Source: Promethearchaeota archaeon
GTDB lineage: Archaea > Asgardarchaeota > Lokiarchaeia > Sigyniarchaeales > SOKP01
Direction: 5' to 3'
Assembly (NCBI GenBank): GCA_019057795.1
Contig: JAHLWS010000075.1
Coordinates: forward strand, 1-64,000
DNA: 64,000 nucleotides
Part shown: positions 1 to 15,017 of the stretch, piece by piece
Layout: each line of letters begins with the position of its first letter
How positions within the stretch are numbered: position 1 is the stretch's first letter
The notes under the pieces: generated by a model
Seen by the model: only the letters and a program-made list of their open reading frames with translations
Told to the model about the DNA's origin: nothing
Databases searched by the model: none
Made by a program: the position numbers and the translations under genes

Positions 1-1907
1 TGTCTTACGTTTTCGGGAAGCTCGTTGAAGTTTTCTGCTATAGCAAAAGCTACAGCCTCAGCGGCTTCTTCTTTTTCAGCAAGATATTTTAATAGTTCTA
101 TAAAAATTTCATCATAGAATTGCTCGTAATCATCAACTTCACTAATGAGATCTTTCATAGCTTTAAAGTATGATGGATGCGAAAATTTAATTCTATTATG
201 AGAGGTAATCTCTATTTTATCTTCTTTAAACCAATTAACAACATCGTTAAATTTCCTAGCATTTTCTAAATCTAAGCTCTCTATTAAGTTTTGGTAAGTT
301 TCTTTAACGAATTCCTCTCTCGCATATCCCAAAACATATAAAATTGTTAAAAATAACACCTTATCTTTGGTCATCTCCTTAATTTCTTTTAAAAATGCCC
401 ATGTGGTTCCCTCTGATTTATCTTTTATCATTGTTAGTAATTGCTCCTTTACATTAATATTGATACTTACTCCAACAAATTCTCTTATGTTTAAAAGCGT
501 AGGTAAATTATATTTGCTCTCTATCTGGTCTAGAACAAAATTCTTCAATTCTTCGTTATTTAACCATATACATTTTTTTAACATAGCCCAGTTTGTAAGA
601 ATTTCTTTTCTTTTTTCAGTAGTATAAGACGGCTTCCCAATGCTCAATCTCTTCTCAAACGCTTCAAGACGCGTTCCAGAGAAAGCTCCTTTTTTAAATT
701 CATTAAAAACTTCTTCCCTTGAGGTAATAATAATATATAAATCTTTAGCATTCTCGATCTCTTCTAAAATACTAGTTATTTTTCTTTCTAAATCGTATCT
801 TTTTTCATATTTAATTTTTCCAAAAGGATCTTCAAAATAAAGGATTTTCTTTGTTACTGGTTCCGATTCTAAATCTTTCATTTTTTGTAATCTGCTTCTG
901 ACATTTAATCTTTCTTCTCGATCTCCTCCTCGAATCCATTCTGGTTTGTATCCCGATTCATAATATTTCCACATAAGGTAAATTGCGGTGTATGTCTTTC
1001 CATATTCCGGCGTTCCTGTTATAAACACGATTTTCTTTTCTTTTAATGTTTTTGAAATTTCTTCAAATTCCAGAGGAGGAACATAAACCTTATCAATCCA
1101 CTTAAATTCATTAGGTAAATAACCCATGCTTGGAACAACGGGTTGACTTTGAAGAAAATGTTTCAAATATAAAGCAGCAGCATGGGCGGCAAATTTTTGC
1201 CATTTGTCTACTTTCAATTTATCCGCGTTATCAGAGATTCCTCTTACTGGAATAAATCCTGGCGGAGGTTTTGACATCCAAGTTGCTATAAGAACGCCCC
1301 AAGCTTCCATTTCAACTGCGAGCATTTTAGGAAGATATTTCAATAAATCATTTATAAACAGCTCACTGGCAACTACTTTCTCTCCAGAGGCTATAAGACC
1401 AAAATGTATATTAGGGTTATAAGGGTTTTCAGGGGGATTAACTGAAATTTCATCTATCCAATTGATATCCTTGAAATTTTTAAACCTATCAATTAATAAA
1501 GCATCGGTAAGCGCTCCCTCAGTTCTACGCTGGAGATTATCTGAAAAAGATTTACCCTTTTCGTAATATCCAATAGAGGTTCCAACGACGATATCACCAA
1601 TTTTAACTTCATTTTTTAATATTCCCCCGGCTATTCCAAGCATAATTACATGTTTAGGATGCAATTTTTCAATAACTTTTCCGCTTAAAACCCCTGCGTG
1701 AACATTACCCACATTTAATAATAAAACTAAGGTAACTTTATATGTTTCGATCTTATTAGGGAAGTGAATTTCTGTCTGATAATATGTCGGAATTTCGTCA
1801 TCTATTTGAATTGTTTCAAAGTTTCCTATTTGCTCAATAACTGCGTCTCGTTCAATTTCGAGGGCTGTAACAATCAAAAAATCAATATTGGTATTTAATC
1901 TACTCAT
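1..1907 (-). CDS. PNP/MTA-SAH nucleosidase + STAND (nSTAND3-like) NTPase + helical repeat protein (NLR/Avs-like), 3' end outside window
   Basis: Hand-translated from ATG 1907 (missing from the ORF track because there is no stop in the window): MSRLNTNIDFLIVTALEIERDAV...MLGIAGG...IGDIVV...IASGEKVVA...AVEMEA...VRGISD (PNP_UDP_1 motifs). Then IVFITGTPEYGKT (Walker A), ILYFEDPFG (Walker B), IIITSR, and at the edge AEAVAFAIAENFNELPENVR (repeat-like). Frame checked at 1907, 1310, 1001 and 59. Confidence 0.9.
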   Translation of the reverse strand, partial: MSRLNTNIDFLIVTALEIERDAVIEQIGNFETIQIDDEIPTYYQTEIHFPNKIETYKVTLVLLLNVGNVHAGVLSGKVIEKLHPKHVIMLGIAGGILKNEVKIGDIVVGTSIGYYEKGKSFSDNLQRRTEGALTDALLIDRFKNFKDINWIDEISVNPPENPYNPNIHFGLIASGEKVVASELFINDLLKYLPKMLAVEMEAWGVLIATWMSKPPPGFIPVRGISDNADKLKVDKWQKFAAHAAALYLKHFLQSQPVVPSMGYLPNEFKWIDKVYVPPLEFEEISKTLKEKKIVFITGTPEYGKTYTAIYLMWKYYESGYKPEWIRGGDREERLNVRSRLQKMKDLESEPVTKKILYFEDPFGKIKYEKRYDLERKITSILEEIENAKDLYIIITSREEVFNEFKKGAFSGTRLEAFEKRLSIGKPSYTTEKRKEILTNWAMLKKCIWLNNEELKNFVLDQIESKYNLPTLLNIREFVGVSININVKEQLLTMIKDKSEGTTWAFLKEIKEMTKDKVLFLTILYVLGYAREEFVKETYQNLIESLDLENARKFNDVVNWFKEDKIEITSHNRIKFSHPSYFKAMKDLISEVDDYEQFYDEIFIELLKYLAEKEEAAEAVAFAIAENFNELPENVR

Positions 1908-2469
1908 TATTACTTTCGGTTTTTTAAACCTTAATTAGATTTTCTGGAATTTTTAATCAATCGTTAAGTAAGATAAATTGTTAAGAATTTGGTATATCAT
2001 TTCGATTTATATTCTTAAAGAATTAAATCTTTTATTAAAACTCTCGCCATAACAAAATCTTGTGCCTAGCAAAAATCTCATTTCATCTGCACTTCATGTA
2101 ATTCGAATAGAATGCTTATTTTTATAAAGATTGGTGATTAAATAACATCGCTAAATTTGGGAGTGGTGGAGTTAAAGAATATTGGCAGGAATCGCCTTTT
2201 TTATAATCATCATTTTAAAGGTGTTAAAGACAATTAATCTGCTAATAAGGACACTTTATTAATCTTTAACAACAAAGTATATTTTATTAAGAAATATCTT
2301 CTAGGAAAATTTACAGAATTTTTAATAATTAAATATGACCAAGAAAAAGAAAAAGTATGAAGATTATTATTCATTAGACGTAAAAAGAAAAGGATACTTA
2401 ATTTTTCTGATTTATTGATGATGATATTAAAAAGATTTGATTATGATTTTATTAGTAAATTAATATTTA

Positions 2470-4065
2470 TTGGGGTGTATCAACATAGGACTAATTGATT
2501 TTATAATTACAAATGATAGAAATAATTTGGATCAATTTATCAAAGAAGTAAAAGAAATTTTAGTTTTCTTTGATCCGATTAGCAATCAAATTCAAAAACT
2601 CATTGTGGATTTTTATAAACGTAAACCAGGATGCTCTTGGAATGATGAAAAATTTAAATACGATATACACGTTCTTAGTTTTGGATATCAACTTAAATCA
2701 CTAGATGGAATCATTTTTCGTTTGTTAGAGGATTTCATTAAAGAAAATATTGATAAATGGATTCAAAAGTTTTCAAATAAAGATTGGTTTGAATATAACA
2801 AAGATTTTTATTATATTGCTAAAGAAATTTGTAATTTCTTAACGAGAATTTTTATTAATGCTTATTCTGGTGAAAATCTTCAGATTATAATAAGTAGAGA
2901 GCTCGACATTTTGTTTGAAATAAAATCTCCAATTACAAAAAGGATTAAACAAGTTATTATTCAAAATTTAGCATTGGAAAAAGATCAAGTTTTTGATTTT
3001 AAAGACCAAATTTTAACAATAAAAGGCCGAGAAGAGAGATGGCACGAAGGAAAGATTGCTAAATCATGTAAAATTAATGATTTTTCTTTAAAATTAAGCT
3101 TTCGTTTGCGTAGGATTTCGCCAGAAGAATTCGAATTGTTCTCTAATTCAAGAGGGTTGCTTACTGACCAGATGAACATATCTACTTGTTTAGAAATAAT
3201 ATATGAATTTCCTAATGACAGATTTGCATCAAGGCTTTCTGAATTAACATTCCAATCTCATTTAGCTACTTATGAAGTTGCAGATTTTATTGATAAAACC
3301 ATTAATAAATTAGTAATTGCAATTAAATTCTCTACAGGATCGTATGTATATCCTGTTGTTTTAAAGTCTATTCCTCAGAATTATTATCTGCAGAAGTTTT
3401 TTCCTGAAGGTTTTACTATTCGCCATAGAAATTGGATGTATTCATTCTTCACAGGAAAATGTATAATCGATTTAGAAAGGTTTAAAACAATCCAAGACAT
3501 TTTCGATCTCTTAATCGATTTTGAGAAATTCCAAATTGCTGAACAAGTCTTGACGATAATGGAGCGTGCTGATAGTGCTTTACAATATGAATTATTTTTA
3601 ACTTCAATTACGATGTATTGGATAATTACAGAATCAATTTTATCTGGAAGTAAAGTTACTATTGCAGAACAAATAAGTTGGTTATATGGTCCTTTACGAA
3701 GAAATGTTGAGAGAGAGTTTTGGAAATTAGTCTATAACCTCAGAAATGATTATATGCATGGTAAAATCTGGAATACTATAAAAGATAAAATAAAAATTAA
3801 ATATCAAAGCAAAAATATTAAATGGTTCGTCTTAGTGACTCGTGAAAAAATAATGCGTGTATTACTTTTTTTATTTTTTTTACATAAATCATCAGATCCA
3901 CTAGAGGAATTATTCAAAACTCGTAAAAATTTTAATTATCCTCCTTCACTCACTCATAGTGATTGGAATAAATTCAAAAAATGGATTCAACTAGGAAAAG
4001 AAAATGAATTAGGAAGTCCACAAAAATATAAAATTAGGATTGGATTAAAACTTATTTCAATTTAA
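2470..4065 (+). CDS. HEPN-domain (Apea-like) protein
   Basis: C-terminal helical region with YWIITESIL ... YNLRNDYMHG (R-x4-H HEPN motif). TTG start is uncertain; upstream short ORFs hint at a frameshifted N-terminus. Confidence 0.7.
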   Translation: MGCINIGLIDFIITNDRNNLDQFIKEVKEILVFFDPISNQIQKLIVDFYKRKPGCSWNDEKFKYDIHVLSFGYQLKSLDGIIFRLLEDFIKENIDKWIQKFSNKDWFEYNKDFYYIAKEICNFLTRIFINAYSGENLQIIISRELDILFEIKSPITKRIKQVIIQNLALEKDQVFDFKDQILTIKGREERWHEGKIAKSCKINDFSLKLSFRLRRISPEEFELFSNSRGLLTDQMNISTCLEIIYEFPNDRFASRLSELTFQSHLATYEVADFIDKTINKLVIAIKFSTGSYVYPVVLKSIPQNYYLQKFFPEGFTIRHRNWMYSFFTGKCIIDLERFKTIQDIFDLLIDFEKFQIAEQVLTIMERADSALQYELFLTSITMYWIITESILSGSKVTIAEQISWLYGPLRRNVEREFWKLVYNLRNDYMHGKIWNTIKDKIKIKYQSKNIKWFVLVTREKIMRVLLFLFFLHKSSDPLEELFKTRKNFNYPPSLTHSDWNKFKKWIQLGKENELGSPQKYKIRIGLKLISI

Positions 4066-4474
4066 ACAAACAAGTTCTTTTCTAATTTAAATGAGAAACG
4101 ATATCTGCGTTTAACTTTTTTGCGATTTTTTCTGCTTGGGTCAATTCTTTTTTTTCCTATTCTAACGGGAGTTAGTTATTTATAAGAGTATTTACATACC
4201 ATAATTGACAAAAAAATTTGTAGTTATCTATGGTTGGAAGTCTCTTTATGAATTTATGGCTGCTCAAAACCTGAACGCATATGGCTATTTGTAACTCTAG
4301 GTATAAACAAGTTTTTTTTTCTCTCAGGTTATCCAAGCCTGTGATTTCATATATTTTTTTGTACACTTATGTAAAGATTTAAATTTAATTACTACTTAAG
4401 TTTAATTTAAAAATTAATGATTTAGATTTGAAATCTTTTCAGGTAATTATTACAACTAAAAATTTTGATGTATC

Positions 4475-5827
4475 ATGGATATTAAGGATGAGAAAGAAGA
4501 ACCGTATAAAATTGATAAAAAGGCAATGGTTTTACTTGCTTCAGATATACACATGGGAGCATTAAGAACAAATATAAGCTTATTTAATGATTTTCTGACA
4601 AACATAATTAGTGGATTAAAAGTTGAATATCTTAAAAATTTAAAAGCCCTCATAATATTGGGTGATTGCTTCGATATAATTATGGATAACTACGAGGATT
4701 TTTATGAACACAAGTTATATAACGATATTTTAAACAAATTTAATATTTTACATGAAATGGACGATTTTAAGTTAATTTTTTCTCTTGGTAATCATGAAGT
4801 TTCCGTAAAGGATGACTATGATAAAAATTTCTTAATTGAGAAGTCAAGTTTTCTGGATGAATTTAATAAAGTTAATAATCAATTTGGAGACAAATATTCT
4901 TTCTTAACTAAGAATAATTTTTCTCAATATGTTATTTTAAAAAATAATATTTCATTAAAACCTGAACTCTTCTTATATGACACCAAACAACAAATAGCTG
5001 AGAATAAAGGAATTATAATTCAATTAAACATTAAAGCATCTGCAAAAAAGAATAATAATATCCTCCTAACCCATGGTTTTCAATTTGACCCTAATTTAGA
5101 CTTTTTTTCGAAAGTATGGGACTTCTCTTTGAAGGTAAAATCTAAAATCGTAAAAGAAATAGCAGATGGAATCTGGAATGGATTCTTTAAGGTAATTTAT
5201 AACAAAGGTAGAAGGTTAAGAGATTATTCTGAAAAACGCAAAGACAGACTTAATAAAAAAGGCAAAAGATTACTTGATAAAACGACTAAAAGTTATTTTG
5301 AGAAATATAAGTTAGAGATCAGTGAACTTGAAAAGACACGATTAGATGAGTTAATTGAGAAGAAGTATAGAGCAGACAAACATAGAGATGATATAAAGGA
5401 CAATTCATTCAATAAAAAAGTTGAAACTGAGTTTTTACCAAAATTGGAAGATTTAGGATATAAAGAACATTTTAATTATATTATATATGGTCATACTCAT
5501 CGCAGATGGCCCCGTACTTTTTTCAGGAGGATAAAGCCTATATATCAGCAACTTGAGCTTTTTAAAATAAAAGACACATTTCTTTTCAATACTGGCGCAT
5601 GGCAACATGTGGATTATCCAAGTTTTATCCAAATTGATAACGATTGGAATATTAGCTTGGTCGATATAAAAACAAAAATAAGCAAAGTTGAAGAAATTTT
5701 AGAAAAGCCACCCTCCCAGAGATTAAAACAAGAACTATTTAAACCACAGCAACAAATCCAACCCCAACAAGAAATTCAAAAAAAACAAGGTATAGAGCTT
5801 AAATTGAAAAAAGATTACGACTTCTGA
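4475..5827 (+). CDS. Calcineurin-like metallophosphoesterase
   Basis: Motifs SDIHMG, GDCFD, GNHE, THG, GHTH, NTGAW; Q-rich C-terminal tail. Confidence 0.85.
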   Translation: MDIKDEKEEPYKIDKKAMVLLASDIHMGALRTNISLFNDFLTNIISGLKVEYLKNLKALIILGDCFDIIMDNYEDFYEHKLYNDILNKFNILHEMDDFKLIFSLGNHEVSVKDDYDKNFLIEKSSFLDEFNKVNNQFGDKYSFLTKNNFSQYVILKNNISLKPELFLYDTKQQIAENKGIIIQLNIKASAKKNNNILLTHGFQFDPNLDFFSKVWDFSLKVKSKIVKEIADGIWNGFFKVIYNKGRRLRDYSEKRKDRLNKKGKRLLDKTTKSYFEKYKLEISELEKTRLDELIEKKYRADKHRDDIKDNSFNKKVETEFLPKLEDLGYKEHFNYIIYGHTHRRWPRTFFRRIKPIYQQLELFKIKDTFLFNTGAWQHVDYPSFIQIDNDWNISLVDIKTKISKVEEILEKPPSQRLKQELFKPQQQIQPQQEIQKKQGIELKLKKDYDF

Positions 5828-5882
5828 CTGATGCCGTATGACTGAAAAAGATTTCAGACTAATTTCTAAATTTTTAATTATA

Positions 5883-6518
5883 TCATAACCTATTTTTTTT
5901 TCTTTTTAATATAAGAATTACTTTTTCTAGCTCTTTATCTATATCATGAGGGAACATTTCACCCAATTCGAACTCATCAGCACAATAAACTAAAGAATAG
6001 GTTATATCATTCATGAATAATCCTTGAAATATAACAAACCAATCATTCAAATGATCACGTAATTTTTGAGTTAAGTCCAAGAATATTTCTATCTTAAGAT
6101 TAGCTATACTTCGTAATTTTATTAAATGTCCTTCATTTAACCAATCCATAATCCTCTGATTTTCTCGTCTCATATTCTCCTTTGTAAAAGTTCTTATTAA
6201 TTTGAACTTTTCAAGTTCTTTCTCACTATAAAGGTTATGTAACTTCCGAAATAAATCATTATATCCCTTATAATATCTCTCCTTTATAACTGGTTCATTA
6301 GCATAGGTCTCTTGTAAATATTCACTAAATTCGTTTCGCTTAAGACCTTGTTGTATATGAGCATTTTTAGATTGTAGTAGTATTGTTTGAAAGCGCTCTA
6401 AGTTATGGATTAATTCTTTTCTTTCCTTTTTCATAACAGTAAAAAAATCAGTAAAGATCTTAAGAAAATAACCTAAAAATAGCGTAATGATTGGAAATAA
6501 CAATTCAAATAAATCCAT
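5883..6518 (-). CDS. Hypothetical protein with N-terminal TM helix
   Basis: 211-aa ORF with hydrophobic N-terminus and helical body; upstream AGGGTAAG purine-rich tract. Confidence 0.6.
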   Translation of the reverse strand: MDLFELLFPIITLFLGYFLKIFTDFFTVMKKERKELIHNLERFQTILLQSKNAHIQQGLKRNEFSEYLQETYANEPVIKERYYKGYNDLFRKLHNLYSEKELEKFKLIRTFTKENMRRENQRIMDWLNEGHLIKLRSIANLKIEIFLDLTQKLRDHLNDWFVIFQGLFMNDITYSLVYCADEFELGEMFPHDIDKELEKVILILKRKKNRL

Positions 6519-6831
6519 TTGTGATCTTACCCTCTATTTAATATCAATTTTGCATGTGTAATAGAATGTTATTTTTGATTTAATTTCAATAGAAATTTAA
6601 GATACTTAAGAATTTAAAGTTCTTTACGAAAAAGAGAATTCTCTAATCACCGTTTAAAATCTAAAATATTTTTTTTTAAAGATGTAACAATCTAAAACTA
6701 ATATAAACGCTATAATAGAGTCTGTTCCTCCATAAAACACATTCTTTAAAGCTGCGTTTTAGGAATGGAATACTCTTTAAAGAGAGTAAATCATGAAAAA
6801 AAAAAGTGAGATTTGATTATGTCTAAAATTG

Positions 6832-7206
6832 CTAAACTACAGCGCTAACCAATGCAGCTTCTATAACGATTATTGCATTTGACAAAAATATCCCTACATT
6901 TGCCGAAGGAATAACGTATGCAGGAATTAGAAGAATAAAGCTGATTAATCCTATTATCCCTCTAACTAGCCATGGTTTGTTAATGAAGGGTCGTAATTCT
7001 TTCCTTTTCTCTGCATCAGGATCTTTTTCATTTACGGTTCTTTTACTAAAGTAAAAAATGAGTATACCGTTATATGCACCAGTTAGCACTGGAACACCCA
7101 CATCATCTGAAGGTATAAATAATAATAGAATTCCAAAAATTAATAACCCAACTACGATCACCAATGATATCATTTCATACTGCCCAAATTTCATTTTATT
7201 AACCAA
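6832..7206 (-). CDS. Small 4-TM membrane protein
   Basis: Four hydrophobic segments; two halves weakly similar (IPSDDVGV / IPSANVGI). Confidence 0.6.
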   Translation of the reverse strand: MVNKMKFGQYEMISLVIVVGLLIFGILLLFIPSDDVGVPVLTGAYNGILIFYFSKRTVNEKDPDAEKRKELRPFINKPWLVRGIIGLISFILLIPAYVIPSANVGIFLSNAIIVIEAALVSAVV

Positions 7207-7483
7207 CTCTTTTAATTTTTTTTCTAAAATTTTTACTTTTATGTAAACTTATTTTCATTTTAAATAAAAGTTTAGTAAATTCTTCAATAATAATTACGGA
7301 AATCTTCATATATAAAGTTTATATTTTTCTGGATTCCGAAATCCATATTTATATAAATCGCAAAATATCCGACAAAAAGAGATAATCTCTGTAATATATT
7401 ATTACTTCTCTGATAAGATTGACACAAAATTAATGATAGCTTTATTAATTTTTAACTTTATAAATTTCTGAATAAAACTGTAT

Positions 7484-7579
7484 TTTTTTAACGATATATC
7501 TCATCCTATACGAGATCATTATGAAATAACACCAACAGGGAGAGACCATTTTGAAAAAAAATTTAAAGAAATAGAATAG
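7484..7579 (+). pseudogene. Remnant of a winged-helix (PadR-like) C-terminus
   Basis: Start-less frame ...RDHYEITPTGRDHFEKKFKEIE* resembles the YEITxxGR wing of PadR/wHTH proteins. Confidence 0.35.
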
Positions 7580-7976
7580 AGAGTCTTAGCAAATTTATTC
7601 GCATTTTTTTAATCATATTACTTTTTCCAGAAATGTTTTATTTCTTCTAAGTACTCCGCTAGTTTTGATTTATCCAATCAATTACGGAACGCAAAAAACT
7701 TCTTTCCTACATTATTATAGAGCAATCCTAATCTCGTTAAGCCAATTTTCAAACATAATAAAGATCCTCATCCATCCTTAAATTACAGATTTTGGTAGTC
7801 ACATAAGCAAGGAAACATTCTCGGGCTTCTTTTAGGGCTTTATGTTTGTGTTTTTCCATAAGGAAGAGAAGCCCATAGAAAATAGATAAACATTTAGTAG
7901 ATATTTTTTTATTTTTAATTATAATAGCATACCAATCATGAATAAAATTGTACCTTATAATAATTCGTGTAAAAAA

Positions 7977-8447
7977 TTAAGAACCTATGAGCAGCTCAAC
8001 TAACAATGTCTTGGGATCGTATGCAATACCTTCAATTCTAAGATCGGTTATGTAATGACCCCAGATGCCATACCTTCCTTGAGATGGTTTCCTATTATAT
8101 AGATTTTCGTAAGTTCCAGGATCACCCGCATCTTTTTCTTCAGTTTCGTATATCTTTTTATACCCTTCATAAATACAGCGAAACAAATCCAATCTAGTAA
8201 ATCCGCCTTTATTAGTGTATTCAAAGCTCGCCTTATTTTTTAAAGGGTAGGTAAACACAATAGAAACAGTCTCTTCTCTTATCAAAAGCTTCTTAGGACC
8301 TATAATCGCATTTAACACATCTTGTTTTTCCCAATCGACTACGTAAGTACATAAAACTCCGTGATCACCCGATTTATAAAGAATTTCAAGAACCTCTTTG
8401 CCGGGGTAAAATTTTCGCATCCTTCTTGTAAAAGAATTATCTTCCAT
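7977..8447 (-). CDS. Conserved hypothetical protein
   Basis: 156 aa with motif-like YPL..GGFTR...YKKIY...NR..GRYGIWGH...DL.IEG. Confidence 0.7.
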   Translation of the reverse strand: MEDNSFTRRMRKFYPGKEVLEILYKSGDHGVLCTYVVDWEKQDVLNAIIGPKKLLIREETVSIVFTYPLKNKASFEYTNKGGFTRLDLFRCIYEGYKKIYETEEKDAGDPGTYENLYNRKPSQGRYGIWGHYITDLRIEGIAYDPKTLLVELLIGS

Positions 8448-8835
8448 ATACTTTCACTTGGTTTTGTAATTATTAAATACTTATTTTGATCATTAATTGT
8501 TATTCTTTTATTTAAAGGAAAATTTAATCTAGCACTTTGGAGAGAATTCTTAACGATTTTTACCTGAAAAGATCTATAAATATTTTTTAACTCAAATTGC
8601 TAATGGAATTACCCAAACTAATGTTAGGAGTAAAAAATCTTCACTCATCAAACAACCTTTTTATAAAAAATACATATTATCAATAATTCTACCAATGCCA
8701 TTTAGTAATTCTCTTCCTTTTTGGATTTATATTTTCATGATATCTGATTCTCTAATTTTATCAAACATTCTACTCATAATTCTACGATTAGCCTTTTCTG
8801 AAAGAGAATAGAATTTGATTATTAATAAATTCTAA

Positions 8836-9045
8836 TTATACAATATTAGGGGTATACCTAATCAGGAATTGATTTAAGTAATTTTCTGGATCTTTAAAAA
8901 TTGAGTTTAAGTAATTATGAAAATCGCTGCCTCCTCCAAATGACCAGCCCATGTAATTGAACCATGCTGATCCGCGTTTATAGAATTTAATCGACTGACT
9001 AGTAATTTTCACTTGATAGTTGTTATACTTGTAGGCGTTGTACAC
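8836..9045 (-). pseudogene. Short ORF / probable gene fragment
   Basis: 69-aa GTG ORF with protein-like composition in a decayed region. Confidence 0.3.
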
Positions 9046-9241
9046 TTTTCAAATATGATTAAACGTTTAGTTTAATTTATAAGGATAGACGGTATAATAT
9101 TTTACAATAGCAGTAATTAAACCTCGCGAGTTAAAAACACCTAAAAAGCCAGAGAAAAATAAAAGAAGATTATTACTATATGGGTTAACCTTGAAAAAAG
9201 TATCTGATAAAATACTTTTTATTGTTTAGAAGGGATATTAA

Positions 9242-11038
9242 TTGAAGAAGACAAAAAACCAAGAAATAAGAGACATTTCAGAAGCTCTACTAAAAAAGAA
9301 TTTCGCTAGTTGGCCTTTTAATCCTTTACCTGATGATTATGGTCTGGATTTTTTCATTAGTATTGCTCAAGATGAGGAAGTTTTAGAGTATAATTTTCTT
9401 GTTCAATTAAAAGGATCTGATTCCCTAGATTATAAAGACGGCTTTTTTAATTTTGTTATGAAAACAAAACATTTACAAAGTTATATTAAAAATCCAATTC
9501 CAATCTTATTAGTTATTTATGATGTTAATACAGAAAGTGGTTATTGGATTAATATTCAGAAATATTGTAGAAATATTTTAAATGTTCAAGATCCTGATTG
9601 GATTGCCCAAAAAACAAAGAGTATAAAAATTTCGATTAACAATCAGTTAAATGACCTAGGTCTCATAAGAAATGAAATAATTCAATCTACAAATGAAAAT
9701 ATGATAATTTATGTTGAAAATATGAAATGGCCAGAAGGGTTTGAAAATTTTATAGATAATCCGGATAGAATTGTAGATATAATAAATAAAACGGAAATTG
9801 AGAATATAAAAAGAAGAATTCATTCATCTTTATTATATTTCCGAAGAGATAATATTAGGGAAATGCAAAATCAATTTTTTGAAATTTATAAACTTAAAAA
9901 GAGAGATAGACATCATCTACAAGCAATTTTAGCAATTATGACAAGTAGTAATATCTTTACAGAAAAAATCGAAACATTTATAAAACTAACAGATGAAGGG
10001 ATTCAACTTTCTGAGGAATTAAAGGATCAACTTTATTGTAATATTTTTAAATTTTTTTTCCATTATTACTCTACATTTGAAATTTTAACGAAACAACAAA
10101 TACCAAATATCTTAAAAAGATTAGAGGCTTCAAAGAAATCTAATCAGATTGATGTTTTTATTAAACTCATTTGGGAGTCTGAAAATATCGATTTAAATAA
10201 TCTGTTGAAAGAACATAGTAGAAAAATATTGGAGATTTTAAACATATTGCTTGAATCAGGGGATTTATTTGAGTATCATACATTAAGTCTACATTTATTG
10301 CAAATAGAAGTATTTTTAAACTCTATTCTTAAAGATCATATAGAAATGTCTGTATTTTCAAAAGTCTTAGAAAAGAATGAACGATTCATCCAGCTCATGG
10401 TTGAATTATCAGAAAAATTTGAAATTATTGATAATCAACTCCATACATATTTATTAACTGGTGGATATTATGAGGCTTATAACCAAGATAAAGCAGAGGA
10501 ATTTTACCGAAAAGGCCTAAGATTGGCTAAAAATTCTAACCATCAGTATTACATAAAAAAATTTAATTATAATTTAGAAAATCTAGGACGCACATCAGAA
10601 TTATTCACTTTAAATGATATAGTTAAAATGCCCTTATCTAAAACTATAGAAACCCTAAAAATATTTAAATTCTCAAATTTAAACTCAATTGAAGATTCCC
10701 TTATTAGAGGTTCTTTGAAATTGGCATTAAATGACCTTAATCCAGTTAATATTTTAAAAAAATGTAAAAGTATTCTAGTTGGATATTATCCTTCAACTTT
10801 AGGGCAGGCAGAGGGTATATATTCTTTAGGTTTAAAAAGGATCACATGTGAAAGATATAAAATTATTTATGAATCTGGAAATCTTAGAAATATATTTGAT
10901 CTTTATGAAAAAAAATATTGTAGTCAATGTGATAAAATTAATCCAAGAGAACACGATTATAATCCTCCAACATCAATTATTAGTGAAATGACTGAAAGAA
11001 TCAATGAGATTGGTCAAAATTCAAGTAAAAATACTTAA
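9242..11038 (+). CDS. DUF4365 (PD-(D/E)XK-type nuclease) + helical/TPR-like region + Cys-rich C-terminus
   Basis: N-terminal DDYGLD...FLVQLKG...PILLVIYD..GYW typical of DUF4365; one TPR-like AEEFYRKGLRLA; C-terminal C..C..CSQC. Confidence 0.8.
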   Translation: MKKTKNQEIRDISEALLKKNFASWPFNPLPDDYGLDFFISIAQDEEVLEYNFLVQLKGSDSLDYKDGFFNFVMKTKHLQSYIKNPIPILLVIYDVNTESGYWINIQKYCRNILNVQDPDWIAQKTKSIKISINNQLNDLGLIRNEIIQSTNENMIIYVENMKWPEGFENFIDNPDRIVDIINKTEIENIKRRIHSSLLYFRRDNIREMQNQFFEIYKLKKRDRHHLQAILAIMTSSNIFTEKIETFIKLTDEGIQLSEELKDQLYCNIFKFFFHYYSTFEILTKQQIPNILKRLEASKKSNQIDVFIKLIWESENIDLNNLLKEHSRKILEILNILLESGDLFEYHTLSLHLLQIEVFLNSILKDHIEMSVFSKVLEKNERFIQLMVELSEKFEIIDNQLHTYLLTGGYYEAYNQDKAEEFYRKGLRLAKNSNHQYYIKKFNYNLENLGRTSELFTLNDIVKMPLSKTIETLKIFKFSNLNSIEDSLIRGSLKLALNDLNPVNILKKCKSILVGYYPSTLGQAEGIYSLGLKRITCERYKIIYESGNLRNIFDLYEKKYCSQCDKINPREHDYNPPTSIISEMTERINEIGQNSSKNT

Positions 11039-11402
11039 AAGGGGATTAATTATTTTAAAGATGTAAGTAAATATTCTTTGCTTTTCTTCATGTACTTTCT
11101 CAATAATATTTTCAATTTCAGCCACTAAAATATATCACCCATTCTTTTCCTCTATTTTATTTCAGTTCATTTTATTTTCAGAATTAAAATTTAGCTCCAC
11201 TTTATTTAAATAACAAATTATATTAACATCTCTCAATTTTTAAAATATCTATTACTTTGTGAACATTTTCGCAATCAAAGGTATGGAAACAACCTTTTAT
11301 TATCAAAATGGGATTATTAAAGCATTAATATGGAATTTTATTAGGAAAAAAATATACATTCTAGCTTGAAATAGGTTATAAAAAAAGGAGTGATAACATT
11401 AA

Positions 11403-12677
11403 ATGAGCTTGAGAAATCTAATTAATAAGGGTGAATCAAACATAATTGAATTTAAAGAGACCTTCAGATATAATGTAGAAACTCAAAGTAAGGATAAATC
11501 ATTAAAAAATGAAGTATCTAAAGCCGTCTGTGGGATGCTCAACTCGGAAGGGGGAAAAGTTTTAATAGGAGTCGCTGATAATAAAACTATTGAGGGCATA
11601 CAGAGAGATTTAAATCTTTATGGTAAAGGAGACGAATCAACTCAACTAGATAGGTTACTTATCGATTTATATAAGCATATTACGGATTCTATTGATATCA
11701 AATCTAAGAAGTTTCTTAAAATTAAAGTGGTTGAAATTGATGGGAAAAAAATAGTCAAGATCGAAATTAAACCCTCAAATGAGCCTTTTTTTCACTCTGG
11801 AGATTTTTTTTATGTTCGTGATGGTCCAAGGACTATTCATCTATTGGGTAAAAAAATGGTAGATTATATTTCCGATAGGGCAAAAACCTTAAATGCTAAA
11901 TCCCCCGAGAAAATCCTCCAAGAAAAACTTGGGGTTATAAATCTTGAGTTTCAAAAATGGGCTCAAGATAAACTAAAGCAAAATCTTTCCTTGGAAGTGA
12001 ATAAGAATAATCCAGATGGAAGAATATATGACTACATTCTTGGGTGTATAATGCCAACTACACTTTCTAAAGATTTAATAGATTTTAATTCGAATCTTAT
12101 CAAAGATTATATTGACAATTATTCTATCATCAAAAGATCTCAAACTTACAAAACCCCTGATTATGCAAGACAATATGAACAATTTTTTGGTGAAGAAATT
12201 TTAATATTTCCTAATGGAAAGGTATGCTTTTGCCAAATTTATAGTTCTTTTCATAAGGAACAACCTGATTTTTCTTTAGGCACTTTAGAGAGTGCTGGTT
12301 ATGAGCGTTTAGTTGTGAAGAAGTTTAAAGAGAAGTATTCTGCCCCATTTTCGTATATAAAGTGGGGAAGTTTAGACTCTCTTTTGGAAGTCATTTGTTT
12401 TCTTTTCCATCCAAAATGTAAAATTAATTTGGTAAATTCACCAACAGATTTATTTCATTTGGAAATAATAGTTCCTAACATGATATATGAGGGAAGAAGG
12501 AGAGTTCTCTCTTCATTTGGAGGATTTCCAAGTCATAAAAGGTATTTAGGAACAAAAAAAGATATTTTTTTCCGCAAATTATTTAGATTTAATGAAATAG
12601 GTAAGATTATAGAGGCTCTAAAAAGCCATATCATGGAATATTATAAAAATCCTGCTAATATGGGATATAGCAGATAA
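11403..12677 (+). CDS. Schlafen/AlbA_2-domain protein
   Basis: GESNIIEFKET...KAVCGMLNSEGGKVLIGVADN...FYVRDG; SD GGAGTGA upstream. Confidence 0.85.
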   Translation: MSLRNLINKGESNIIEFKETFRYNVETQSKDKSLKNEVSKAVCGMLNSEGGKVLIGVADNKTIEGIQRDLNLYGKGDESTQLDRLLIDLYKHITDSIDIKSKKFLKIKVVEIDGKKIVKIEIKPSNEPFFHSGDFFYVRDGPRTIHLLGKKMVDYISDRAKTLNAKSPEKILQEKLGVINLEFQKWAQDKLKQNLSLEVNKNNPDGRIYDYILGCIMPTTLSKDLIDFNSNLIKDYIDNYSIIKRSQTYKTPDYARQYEQFFGEEILIFPNGKVCFCQIYSSFHKEQPDFSLGTLESAGYERLVVKKFKEKYSAPFSYIKWGSLDSLLEVICFLFHPKCKINLVNSPTDLFHLEIIVPNMIYEGRRRVLSSFGGFPSHKRYLGTKKDIFFRKLFRFNEIGKIIEALKSHIMEYYKNPANMGYSR

Positions 12678-12712
12678 TTTTAATGATCATTTCAATCATA
12701 TGTTCCTTAAAT

Positions 12713-12756
12713 ATTATGACAGTAGCACTATTGTTTGGAATTTAAAAAGCCGTAAA
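12713..12756 (+). repeat. Orphan copy of the 3' end of the plsY-kinase genes (direct repeat)
   Basis: ATTATGACAGTAGCACTATTGTTTGG is identical at 12713, 19621 and 21021; 41/44 match to 19621-19664, followed by a T-tract. Confidence 0.9.
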
Positions 12757-12836
12757 GTCTTTTTTTTTTCTTTTTTATTAAATTTTTTACCTAATCGTTC
12801 CAAAAGATCAAATGCGATGAAGAGAGTACGAGTTGT

Positions 12837-15017
12837 TTATTTTATAAGTAGCTTTTGAATTTCCTCTGCCTTTTTGAAGCATTTTAAAGCATCTTCAAAT
12901 CTTCTAATTTCTCGATAAAGATTGCCCAAATTATAGTATCTCATAATTAAGAATTGAGGATCTTTGGTATTATGTGCTATTTCAATTGCTTTCTGGTAAC
13001 AAGTAATTGCATTGTTATATTTTCCTTTTTCTTTAAATATTAAGCCAATATTGTTCAGAGCTACTCCTCTTAGTCTTAAATACTCGTTCTCTTTTGCGAT
13101 TTTTAGGACTTTTTTAAATTTGGATAAAGCTTCATCAAAATCATTTTCTATACGAGCAATATCACCAAGGCTATTTAACCTAATACCAACAGACCGTAAA
13201 TTTCCTTCTTTTTGGGCAATATTCAATGCTTTAGAATAATAATCTTTTGCCTTATCATATTCTCTTGTGTCCAAATATACTTTTCCTAGATTGCTATATA
13301 TAAATCCTTTAAGACCGTTAAGTTCATATCTTTCAATAATGTTTAATGCTTCTTCTAGTTTTTCGATTGCTAAAGAGAATTTTTGGGCGTAAATATACAC
13401 TGCTCCCATATTTCCTAAAATTTCTACCTTGCTAGGTTCTAGTCTAAGCGAATCAAAAATATCACTTGCTTGAGCAAGACATGTGAGCGCTTCATCTAAT
13501 TTTAACTCTGATGTTAAAATTTTCCCCATAAGATTTAAGCTAGATGCTAATTGATGTAATACTCCAAGTTTTTTATTTAACTCAATTGCTTGAGAGAGAT
13601 ATTTTTTAGCTCTACCCGTATTCCCTTGTTCATGAAAAAGAGTCGCCATATTGAAATATATAGTAGAAATTCTATGTTTATTTCTATACTTTTTAGCAAT
13701 TTGAAGCGCTTTTTGATAACTTTTTAACGCTTCGTTATAACGAGCTAATGAACTTAAGATTGTTCCTTGATCGAGATAAAATAAGGAGATTTCTATTTCC
13801 TCCTTTGATTTTGAAACAATATCCAACCCTCTATTTAGGTATTCAAGTCCTTTTATTAATTCACCTTTTTCAGCGTAGGCATTTCCAGCATTAGCATAGG
13901 TTAATCCTAATAACCATTCTTCCCATTTATTTAATCTTCTTTTCTCACATATTTTGATTATTTTAAGGGCCAATCGTAATGAATCATTAAAGAATTCTAA
14001 TTCATGGTAAATTCTATGTGCGTTGTATAATTTTACCAAATGATTAGGATTAGGGAGATTTTGTTGTAAAAATTCATTAATCTGAAGATTGAACACCTCA
14101 TGTGTTAATTGATAATCAACCTTAACTAATTGAGACAAAATTTTATTGGTGTTTCCTCTTAAGACAAAAAAATTTTCTGCTATATTTTTCTCTAAAAAAG
14201 ATTTTAATATTTGTTTTAAAGCTTCCTTAATAGGTAATGTACTAAGAATTTCTACATTATCAATTAGATAACTATCAAACAGAGTTTTATTATCATCATG
14301 GTCAACCCAGATTATACTTTTGACTTTATTGAGTTTGTATAAAGCCGGTATGATATCAAAGTCATCACTACCAGAATAACCTATTACAACTATGTTATTA
14401 TCCTGTGAAAACTGTTCAAATAACTTCTTTTTATTTGGATCTAATTCAAATAAATCGAAACCACTTTTATTTTTACCAAATGCGCTTAGGGTTGACATTA
14501 TTGAATCTTTAGTGTCTTGTTTAGTTATTATATTCTTAAGAGAACCATGTAATTTATAGATAGGATATTTACCTTGGGAAAATAGCTTTTTAGGATTAAA
14601 ATATTGTTTGTAATCATTATTAGAAATTACAGGAATGATCTGATTCTTTGATATGTTAGAGTTTAAAAGGGCTAATTCTATCAAATGGTCGAAATTGGTT
14701 GTCATGACAATACTATGGTTTTTTAGTAATTCGACAAGAGTATAATGATAATGGTTAGGAGAATCGCATAAACCGTAATAGTCTAATATTTTAAGCTCAT
14801 GATCTAAAGTTCGACTTAGAGTTCCAACTAAACCCTCAAATCGTAATTCTTTAATATTTAAAATTTTCTCAATTTCAGGTTTAGGACATAGGAACTTTAT
14901 AATTTCCTCCATCATGACCTTTGCTGACGGTAAGTTAGAGGGGGTATCTATTGAGCATCCTGCTCCAACTAGAAAAATTAAATTGTCCTTAGTAAACAAT
15001 GAGTCGAAATCAAACAT
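12837..15017 (-). CDS. SIR2-like NADase domain + TPR repeats
   Basis: FLVGAGCS, TTNFD, KLHGS, VIGYSGSDDFDI, then about 9 TPR-like repeats. Confidence 0.9.
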   Translation of the reverse strand: MFDFDSLFTKDNLIFLVGAGCSIDTPSNLPSAKVMMEEIIKFLCPKPEIEKILNIKELRFEGLVGTLSRTLDHELKILDYYGLCDSPNHYHYTLVELLKNHSIVMTTNFDHLIELALLNSNISKNQIIPVISNNDYKQYFNPKKLFSQGKYPIYKLHGSLKNIITKQDTKDSIMSTLSAFGKNKSGFDLFELDPNKKKLFEQFSQDNNIVVIGYSGSDDFDIIPALYKLNKVKSIIWVDHDDNKTLFDSYLIDNVEILSTLPIKEALKQILKSFLEKNIAENFFVLRGNTNKILSQLVKVDYQLTHEVFNLQINEFLQQNLPNPNHLVKLYNAHRIYHELEFFNDSLRLALKIIKICEKRRLNKWEEWLLGLTYANAGNAYAEKGELIKGLEYLNRGLDIVSKSKEEIEISLFYLDQGTILSSLARYNEALKSYQKALQIAKKYRNKHRISTIYFNMATLFHEQGNTGRAKKYLSQAIELNKKLGVLHQLASSLNLMGKILTSELKLDEALTCLAQASDIFDSLRLEPSKVEILGNMGAVYIYAQKFSLAIEKLEEALNIIERYELNGLKGFIYSNLGKVYLDTREYDKAKDYYSKALNIAQKEGNLRSVGIRLNSLGDIARIENDFDEALSKFKKVLKIAKENEYLRLRGVALNNIGLIFKEKGKYNNAITCYQKAIEIAHNTKDPQFLIMRYYNLGNLYREIRRFEDALKCFKKAEEIQKLLIK

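Follow-up and report, generated by a model that had tools for sequence, protein, structure and literature searches.

The first bases of the window analysed here, a stretch of 64,000 nucleotides that opens contig C75 in a genome of 4.95 Mb and 87 contigs, raise the question of whether an archaeal gene that runs off its contig encodes sensor, switch and executioner of an immune response in one protein. The initial annotation had proposed such a gene in an Asgard-type genome and had suggested that it bears on the origin of eukaryotic NLR/PNP immunity. The frame of more than 635 codons said to be missing from the ORF list is real; from an ATG at 1907 it extends for 635 stop-free codons on the minus strand and leaves the contig at window base 1, and it is absent from that list because the contig border leaves its 3' end open. 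The assignment to an Asgard genome also stood, as several housekeeping proteins of the window share 90% clusters with Ca. Lokiarchaeota archaeon Loki_b31, and by protein similarity the host is a Lokiarchaeon near that organism.

The integrity of the gene was evident from data of a probable source sample, in which one Logan contig covered positions 9-2400 with zero differences and zero gaps. Read depth over bases 1-80 was about 4x that of the remainder in runs X1, X3 and X4 and only 1.3x in run X2, and joints of 96-bp period in source-sample contigs translated to more, partly different, repeat units. The elevated depth at the end and the repeat joints therefore place the break in the assembly inside the repeat array, and the gap-free contig together with the array joints indicates that there is neither an in-frame stop nor a frameshift between the domains. 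Thus, the gene is intact between its domains and truncated at the point where assembly of the tandem repeats broke down. Extension to the left, as had been advised, succeeded to the extent that the array continued in source-sample contigs, but neither a tblastn search that used the tails of homologs nor a check of the ends of contigs located a continuation in the assembly, and the 87 contigs contained no second copy of the gene. Judged from homologs, the complete protein is probably about 820-1080 aa long. Downstream neighbours at three homologous loci mapped to C74:1410-3200 of the same genome; the join between C75 and C74 is unproven because C74:1-1400 contains no gene tail and is a partial duplicate of C55. 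A 107-aa gene and an RNase III-like gene, which form the downstream flank of the receptor gene in related loci, were noted at G000:C74:1470-2650, preceded by a stretch that occurs a second time at the end of C55. Coordinates of the features are listed in Table 1.

Table 1. Positions of the receptor gene, its parts and its surroundings in the window.
Feature	Position	Strand	Remarks
PNP-nSTAND3-repeat gene	3..1907	minus	635 codons, 3'-open at contig C75 start
PNP/nucleosidase effector domain, assigned to immune clade	1140..1889	minus	aa ~7-256
RGISD motif	1230..1244	minus	aa 222-226; D226 is the counterpart of essential Cap17 D472
nSTAND3 NTPase core	591..1085	minus	aa 275-439
Walker A GTPEYGKT	993..1016	minus	aa 298-305
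Walker B-like YFEDPFG	819..839	minus	aa 357-363
STAND-module helical and winged-helix-like domains	138..590	minus	LPTxL and FSHPSY motifs
First unit of near-identical 32-33-aa HEAT-like repeats	3..83	minus	array extends past contig end
Upstream non-coding stretch	1908..2340		350-430 bp at 94-96% in three related loci
Low-GC island (27-29%) around receptor gene	2470..15017		context, outside the gene

The predicted order of PNP domain, STAND NTPase and helical repeats was confirmed by agreement between Pfam hits, motifs and full-length relatives. PNP_UDP_1 (aa 11-245, E=1.5e-13, 51 bits, cut-off 25) and nSTAND3 (aa 275-439, E=3.8e-22, 79 bits, cut-off 27) both scored above the Pfam cut-off in the HMM check. 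Intact EMEA, RGISD, GTPEYGKT and FEDPFG motifs and the start of an NFxxLPENVR-type repeat were all located where they had been reported, the single repeat in the window frame ending NFNELPENVR, and ALEIE (E19), VEMEA (198-202) and ITSREE (394-399) motifs were noted as well. The G, E, Y, G, K and T of Walker A were invariant across 82 homologs. An AlphaFold model of the homolog P0002 (aa 258-970, pLDDT 90.9) comprised P-loop, helical and winged-helix-like domains followed by a two-helix solenoid, and matched NOD2, SAMD9, Avs5, an archaeal STAND protein and PP2A-type HEAT proteins, with plant NLRs, CED-4 and alphaRep proteins among VIA fold matches; at 8-16% identity, all of these are likenesses of fold only. 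A sequence search of the PDB returned nothing for the NTPase or for a cyclase-like domain of relatives described below, both of which were matched by fold searches. Pfam matches of the repeats to UBM, MgtE_N, TRCF and DUF7070 were taken as spurious helical matches. The protein thus combines the N-terminal effector, Walker A/B NTPase, helical and winged-helix domains and C-terminal repeats of STAND/NLR architecture.

The proposed identity of the PNP domain as an immune effector was supported by the domain tree, by the mapping of catalytic residues and by matches to defence models. Scores were best on the latter (PADLOC CBASS PN-superfamily effector, E=5e-22; PDC-M60C, E=5e-35) and were under every NCBIfam equivalog cut-off for housekeeping MtnN (79.7 vs 169 and 43.4 vs 73.8 bits), and the domain is fused rather than a stand-alone enzyme of about 230 aa. 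The nearest 150 PNP domains occur in proteins of 257-2107 aa, mostly fusions, with SAVED, EAD7, TIR, NACHT, TPR, REC and WD40 as partner domains among the 79 that were scanned; the best plasmid match (42%) came from Nostoc, a PNP-SAVED gene with a CBASS cyclase as its neighbour. In a tree that contained a Cap17-like homolog (505 aa, Pfam Cap17-like_N), DtcC-like proteins and five MtnN enzymes, MtnN was split from a Cap17/DtcC/PNP-SAVED immune clade, with the query inside the latter, at 100/100, and placement of the query with MtnN was rejected at a borderline level (p-AU 0.043). Residues E19, E201, R222 and D226 aligned to E12, E174, R193 and D197 of MtnN and to E253, E449, R468 and D472 of the Cap17-like protein, and mutation of D472 abolishes defence by Cap17 (10.1101/2023.01.24.525353). 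By sequence, then, the domain belongs to the Cap17/DtcC clade of immune ATP nucleosidases.

Differences from MtnN were also noted within the active site. The domain shares with Cap17 and DtcC the substitutions S76→I and F151→V, and the 5'-alkylthio pocket residues V102, F105 and Y107 of MtnN found no aligned counterpart, their position being taken by a conserved Y115-K119-R128 loop that may bind phosphates. A homodimer of the domain was predicted with a score of 0.54 compared with 0.00 for the best control (contact agreement >=98%, pLDDT 90), a mark attained by 20 of 30 solved pairs and 1 of 23 single chains, and the loop was set at the active-site region of the partner. The prediction may owe its score to a resemblance to MtnN dimers of solved structure; the best solved-structure matches of the domain are MtnN enzymes. 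Rousset et al. reported that Cap17, DtcC, a fungal domain and a sponge domain are ATP nucleosidases (10.1101/2023.01.24.525353), and ATP specificity of the present domain is extrapolated from membership of their clade. The closest PNP relative and tree sister, P0125, is a stand-alone protein of 317 aa whose gene precedes that of a NACHT-HEAT protein by 44 bp (L091:659-4209), so that effector and NLR form a split pair.

Five homologs contained the same fusion: P0002 (87% identical, 970 aa), P0003 (82%, 969 aa), P0122 (1081 aa) and P0004 and P0005 (67-68% identical, 819 aa). The catalytic residues were retained in six homologs down to 67% identity, and the six PNP fusions formed one clade (100/99), with deeper branching unresolved. 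Flanks of P0002, P0003 and P0122 showed 85-93% DNA identity to the genome under study, and these three genes therefore come from close relatives. Homology stopped beyond the conserved upstream stretch of 350-430 bp, where the neighbours were unlike in every homologous locus, one of them being an integrase in the adjoining gene of L036; downstream, the 107-aa gene was common to the three close loci and the RNase III-like gene was present in two. In comparisons with L001 and L002, dN/dS was 0.8-0.9 for the PNP domain (window 1140-1907), with few changes, and 0.4-0.5 for the NTPase. A search with two peptide patterns detected no relatives in viral contigs.

The array of the receptor itself is seen in part; repeat statistics were obtained from full-length close homologs, which carry 10, 10 and 13 near-identical HEAT-like repeats, each of 32-33 aa. 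Mean DNA identity between repeats was 81-87% (maximum 97%), and Psim-like values on a 26-aa block were 0.75-0.81, so that Psim>=0.7, variation in copy number and few hypervariable sites, the marks of high internal conservation, were all found in these proteins. Six variable columns (6, 9, 10, 13, 14 and 17) were chosen on a separate training set of 20 cyclase-family proteins. In the PNP lineage, pN was 0.29-0.41 and pS 0.02-0.10 at these columns, compared with pN 0.09-0.12 and pS 0.14-0.22 at the remaining ones; the non-synonymous excess is suggestive, the repeats being related and non-independent, so that a Fisher p=1e-4 overstates it. On these sequence comparisons, the array has undergone concerted evolution plus site-specific diversification. 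Columns 9, 10, 13, 14 and 17 share the spacing of the alphaRep binding positions 18/19/22/23/26 (PMC3754942), and alphaRep structures were among the fold matches (4XL5, Z=12.6). The alphaRep repeat is, however, an engineered one of 31 aa, whereas the present repeat is natural, has 32-33 aa and has a presumed binding role.

A search with the receptor matched 465 relatives, and in 98 of the closest 121 (the query and the top 120 of the 465) the PNP domain was replaced by another N-terminal domain, marked by the motif DILG[FY]. A model of this domain (pLDDT 93.9; example P0029:1-215; loci L012-L035) matched class III adenylyl/guanylyl cyclases at E of about 1e-5, and the domain contained two invariant aspartates, D11 and D63 in P0029. 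Groups with the cyclase-fold version were ANME-1, Bathyarchaeia, Atabeyarchaeia and Chloroflexi, and named hosts included Methanophagales, Argoarchaeum, Hydrothermarchaeota, Bathyarchaeota, Atabeyarchaeia, Dehalococcoidia, Zixibacteria and Firestonebacteria; the best NTPase matches (about 50-54%) were to ANME-1 and other sediment prokaryotes. Cyclase-version relatives were frequently located among housekeeping genes, outside defence islands, and four such loci with annotated neighbours contained no obvious cNMP-binding effector. No paper was found that describes a family with cyclase fold, nSTAND3 and near-identical HEAT repeats. The sensor-switch module probably belongs to a horizontally spread family of sediment prokaryotes, the usual N-terminal domain of which has a class III cyclase fold.

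Within Lokiarchaeia, the module was detected in 7 of 161 genomes and in none of 41 congeners, in variants with a caspase, nuclease-like, cyclase or membrane N-terminus or with a C-terminal Roc GTPase. Among these, a Lokiarchaeon of the same family carried a caspase (Peptidase_C14)-nSTAND3-repeat fusion (L052:3-2423, G074:C379), which by its domains would be an apoptosome-like single gene, and another Lokiarchaeon carried nSTAND3 with a C-terminal Ras/Roc GTPase in place of the repeats (L006:994-3435, G041:C186). A membrane-anchored nSTAND3-repeat homolog in two overlapping frames (L007/L010, G055:C1:5748234-5749297) was noted in a closed 6.0-Mb genome. One further Lokiarchaeia genome encoded both a distant LRR-PNP-nSTAND3 protein in a 1188-aa frame (L008/L073, G060:C9) and a PNP-NACHT-like protein in a 1481-aa frame (L011, G060:C11), which are built independently of the present receptor. 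On domain content, the family swaps its effectors; exchange is evident, and the STAND tree, star-like with long branches and unsettled bootstrap values, fixed neither the direction of the swap between cyclase and PNP nor its donor. The PNP domain in the effector slot looks drawn from the prokaryotic defence pool.

The receptor gene heads an island of 15 kb that encodes a putative HEPN protein, a metallophosphoesterase, a DUF4365-REase, a Schlafen AlbA_2 protein and a SIR2-TPR protein. The first of these, a 531-aa ORF at window 2470-4065 (+), had no Pfam or PADLOC match and appeared ApeA/HEPN-like by inspection of its C-terminal RNDYMH. The DUF4365 nuclease (9242-11038, +) carries a helical tail, the AlbA_2 domain is part of a fusion (11403-12677, +), and the SIR2-like domain (12837-15017, -) is joined directly to a long TPR array with no NTPase match.

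Comparison with known systems placed the receptor near several of them. Avs-family proteins with an N-terminal ATP nucleosidase were already reported by Rousset et al. (10.1101/2023.01.24.525353) and likewise join a Cap17-clade PNP domain to a STAND core and C-terminal sensor, and many bacterial PNP-STAND-repeat proteins were among our search matches; the present gene differs in its Asgard host and in its sensor of near-identical HEAT-like repeats. Avs5 (PMC12931631; PDB 9JAP, 9NC9) has the same nSTAND3 core and tripartite layout (Foldseek E=1.3e-4; VIA Z=11.1) but SIR2 and TPR/Sel1/PPR repeats in place of PNP and HEAT-like ones, at 9-14% identity. The PNP domains of CBASS Cap17 and Detocs DtcC share clade and catalytic Asp with the one described here but are activated by a cyclic oligonucleotide or a phosphorelay rather than by a fused STAND module. 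PADLOC Avs models gave no match at E<=0.01, and neither PF05729 (NACHT) nor PF00931 (NB-ARC) matched the receptor at E<=1; by these models it is neither one of Avs1-5 nor a NACHT/NB-ARC NLR, though it would work like an Avs or NLR. Fungal PNP_UDP-NACHT/NB-ARC NLRs (PMC13449251) also combine a PNP effector with a switch and with repeats that are nearly identical, vary in copy number and have a few hypervariable sites. They differ in NTPase family and repeat type, and because no close sequence link was found the likeness probably arose by convergent assembly. The bacterial NACHT proteins of Kibby et al. (10.1101/2022.07.19.500537) have similarly swappable PNPase, cNMP cyclase, caspase and REase effectors and HEAT sensors, around a NACHT rather than an nSTAND3 core. 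NLR-like systems are known in Asgard archaea (PMC11291487), and NLRs with high internal conservation have been reported beyond fungi, the archaeal ones mostly with WD40 repeats (PMC13449251). In the literature searched, nSTAND3 paired with these effectors was not found; what is new here is an archaeal nSTAND3 module that exchanges its effectors and carries diversifying repeats of an alphaRep-like kind.

The domain tree, catalytic mapping, fold search and defence-island setting favour the Avs/NLR-like function first proposed, and it is likely that the gene encodes a single-gene STAND receptor against invaders; the missing PADLOC Avs matches and the housekeeping surroundings of many cyclase-version relatives speak against it. 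The repeat solenoid would use the variable face of its second helix to bind a foreign protein, probably one of a virus, and free the nSTAND3 switch, upon which the protein would oligomerise and allow its PNP domains to form, or release, MtnN-like dimers. These would cut adenine from ATP and dATP, and the loss of ATP would starve the infected cell, with abortive infection or dormancy as the outcome. The three-part architecture, catalytic and P-loop motifs, immune-clade PNP domain and concerted, diversifying HEAT-like array come from the present data, while ligand, oligomer, substrate and phenotype are drawn by analogy from Avs5, Cap17 and DtcC. A protein of the same architecture might instead act on another nucleotide (AMP, NAD-derived or signalling), or have signalling rather than lethal ATP depletion as its output; the cyclase-fold domain in the same slot of the sister family suggests nucleotide signalling, PNPase effectors have been listed among NAD+-targeting domains (Kibby et al., 10.1101/2022.07.19.500537), and sequence cannot reveal substrate. 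We regard this as unlikely, given that the four assayed members of the clade were reported to be ATP nucleosidases (Rousset et al.) and that their changes relative to MtnN occur in the present domain. Still more improbable is a receptor for non-viral self/non-self or partner recognition, comparable to fungal allorecognition NLRs, or a regulatory STAND protein that senses a cellular protein. Repeats of high internal conservation in which a few sites are hypervariable characterise fungal het genes (PMC13449251) and some relatives lie among housekeeping genes, whereas the patchy distribution, the island with five other effector-type genes, the integrase of L036 and an effector from an anti-phage clade argue against such a role.

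The suggested bearing on eukaryotic NLR/PNP immunity was not sustained. The gene is rare in Asgard archaea and its NTPase is nSTAND3, not NACHT or NB-ARC; the best PNP matches were fusion proteins (40-47% identity), the named ones bacterial, and other Asgard PNPs were at most 34% identical to the query. No eukaryotic names were present among the search matches, and the PNP and STAND trees were built without eukaryotic sequences. On these grounds the claim lacks support. Vertical inheritance of an Asgard NLR lineage akin to the ancestor of eukaryotic PNP-NLRs would fit the presence of the module in several Lokiarchaeia and Atabeyarchaeia, the weak grouping of Loki rows (83/91), which takes in one Bacteroidota row and has long branches, and a test in which Asgard monophyly was neither recovered nor rejected (p-AU 0.17). 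Such descent is nonetheless very improbable given the few class genomes and absent congeners noted above, immune-type PNP in 6 of 400 Asgard genomes and at most 38% identical over any match, Asgard PNPs ungrouped in the free tree (p-AU 0.051) and the NTPase family and lack of eukaryotic names just mentioned. Chance fusion of a housekeeping MTA/SAH nucleosidase to a STAND module, or decay of the gene, is hardly credible; the solved MtnN structures, the lack of a stand-alone MtnN among the four PNP hits of the genome and the dN/dS of the PNP domain would agree with it, but the clade placement, failed MtnN cut-offs, unaligned alkylthio pocket and catalytic residues kept in six homologs do not. 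The question of eukaryotic NLR origin is left unmoved, and the parts of the anti-invader receptor look borrowed from a mobile prokaryotic pool.

For the family as a whole, we offer as a tentative and somewhat doubtful proposal that this apparently undescribed, mainly archaeal nSTAND3 family uses its HEAT-like arrays as a natural combinatorial library of alphaRep-type binders, in which unequal exchange reshuffles the repeats and about six residues of each repeat diversify, with output swapped among cyclase, ATP nucleosidase, caspase and nuclease; Asgard archaea and ANME might then possess a fast-evolving recognition system like that of fungal het genes with a readable repeat code. The search brought to light several hundred archaeal and sediment-bacterial STAND proteins, and the receptor is a candidate for ATP-depleting, NLR-like immunity in Asgard archaea, a group in which hardly any defence system has been put to the test. 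Repeat evolution as in fungal allorecognition NLRs would make repeat-swap experiments on specificity possible.
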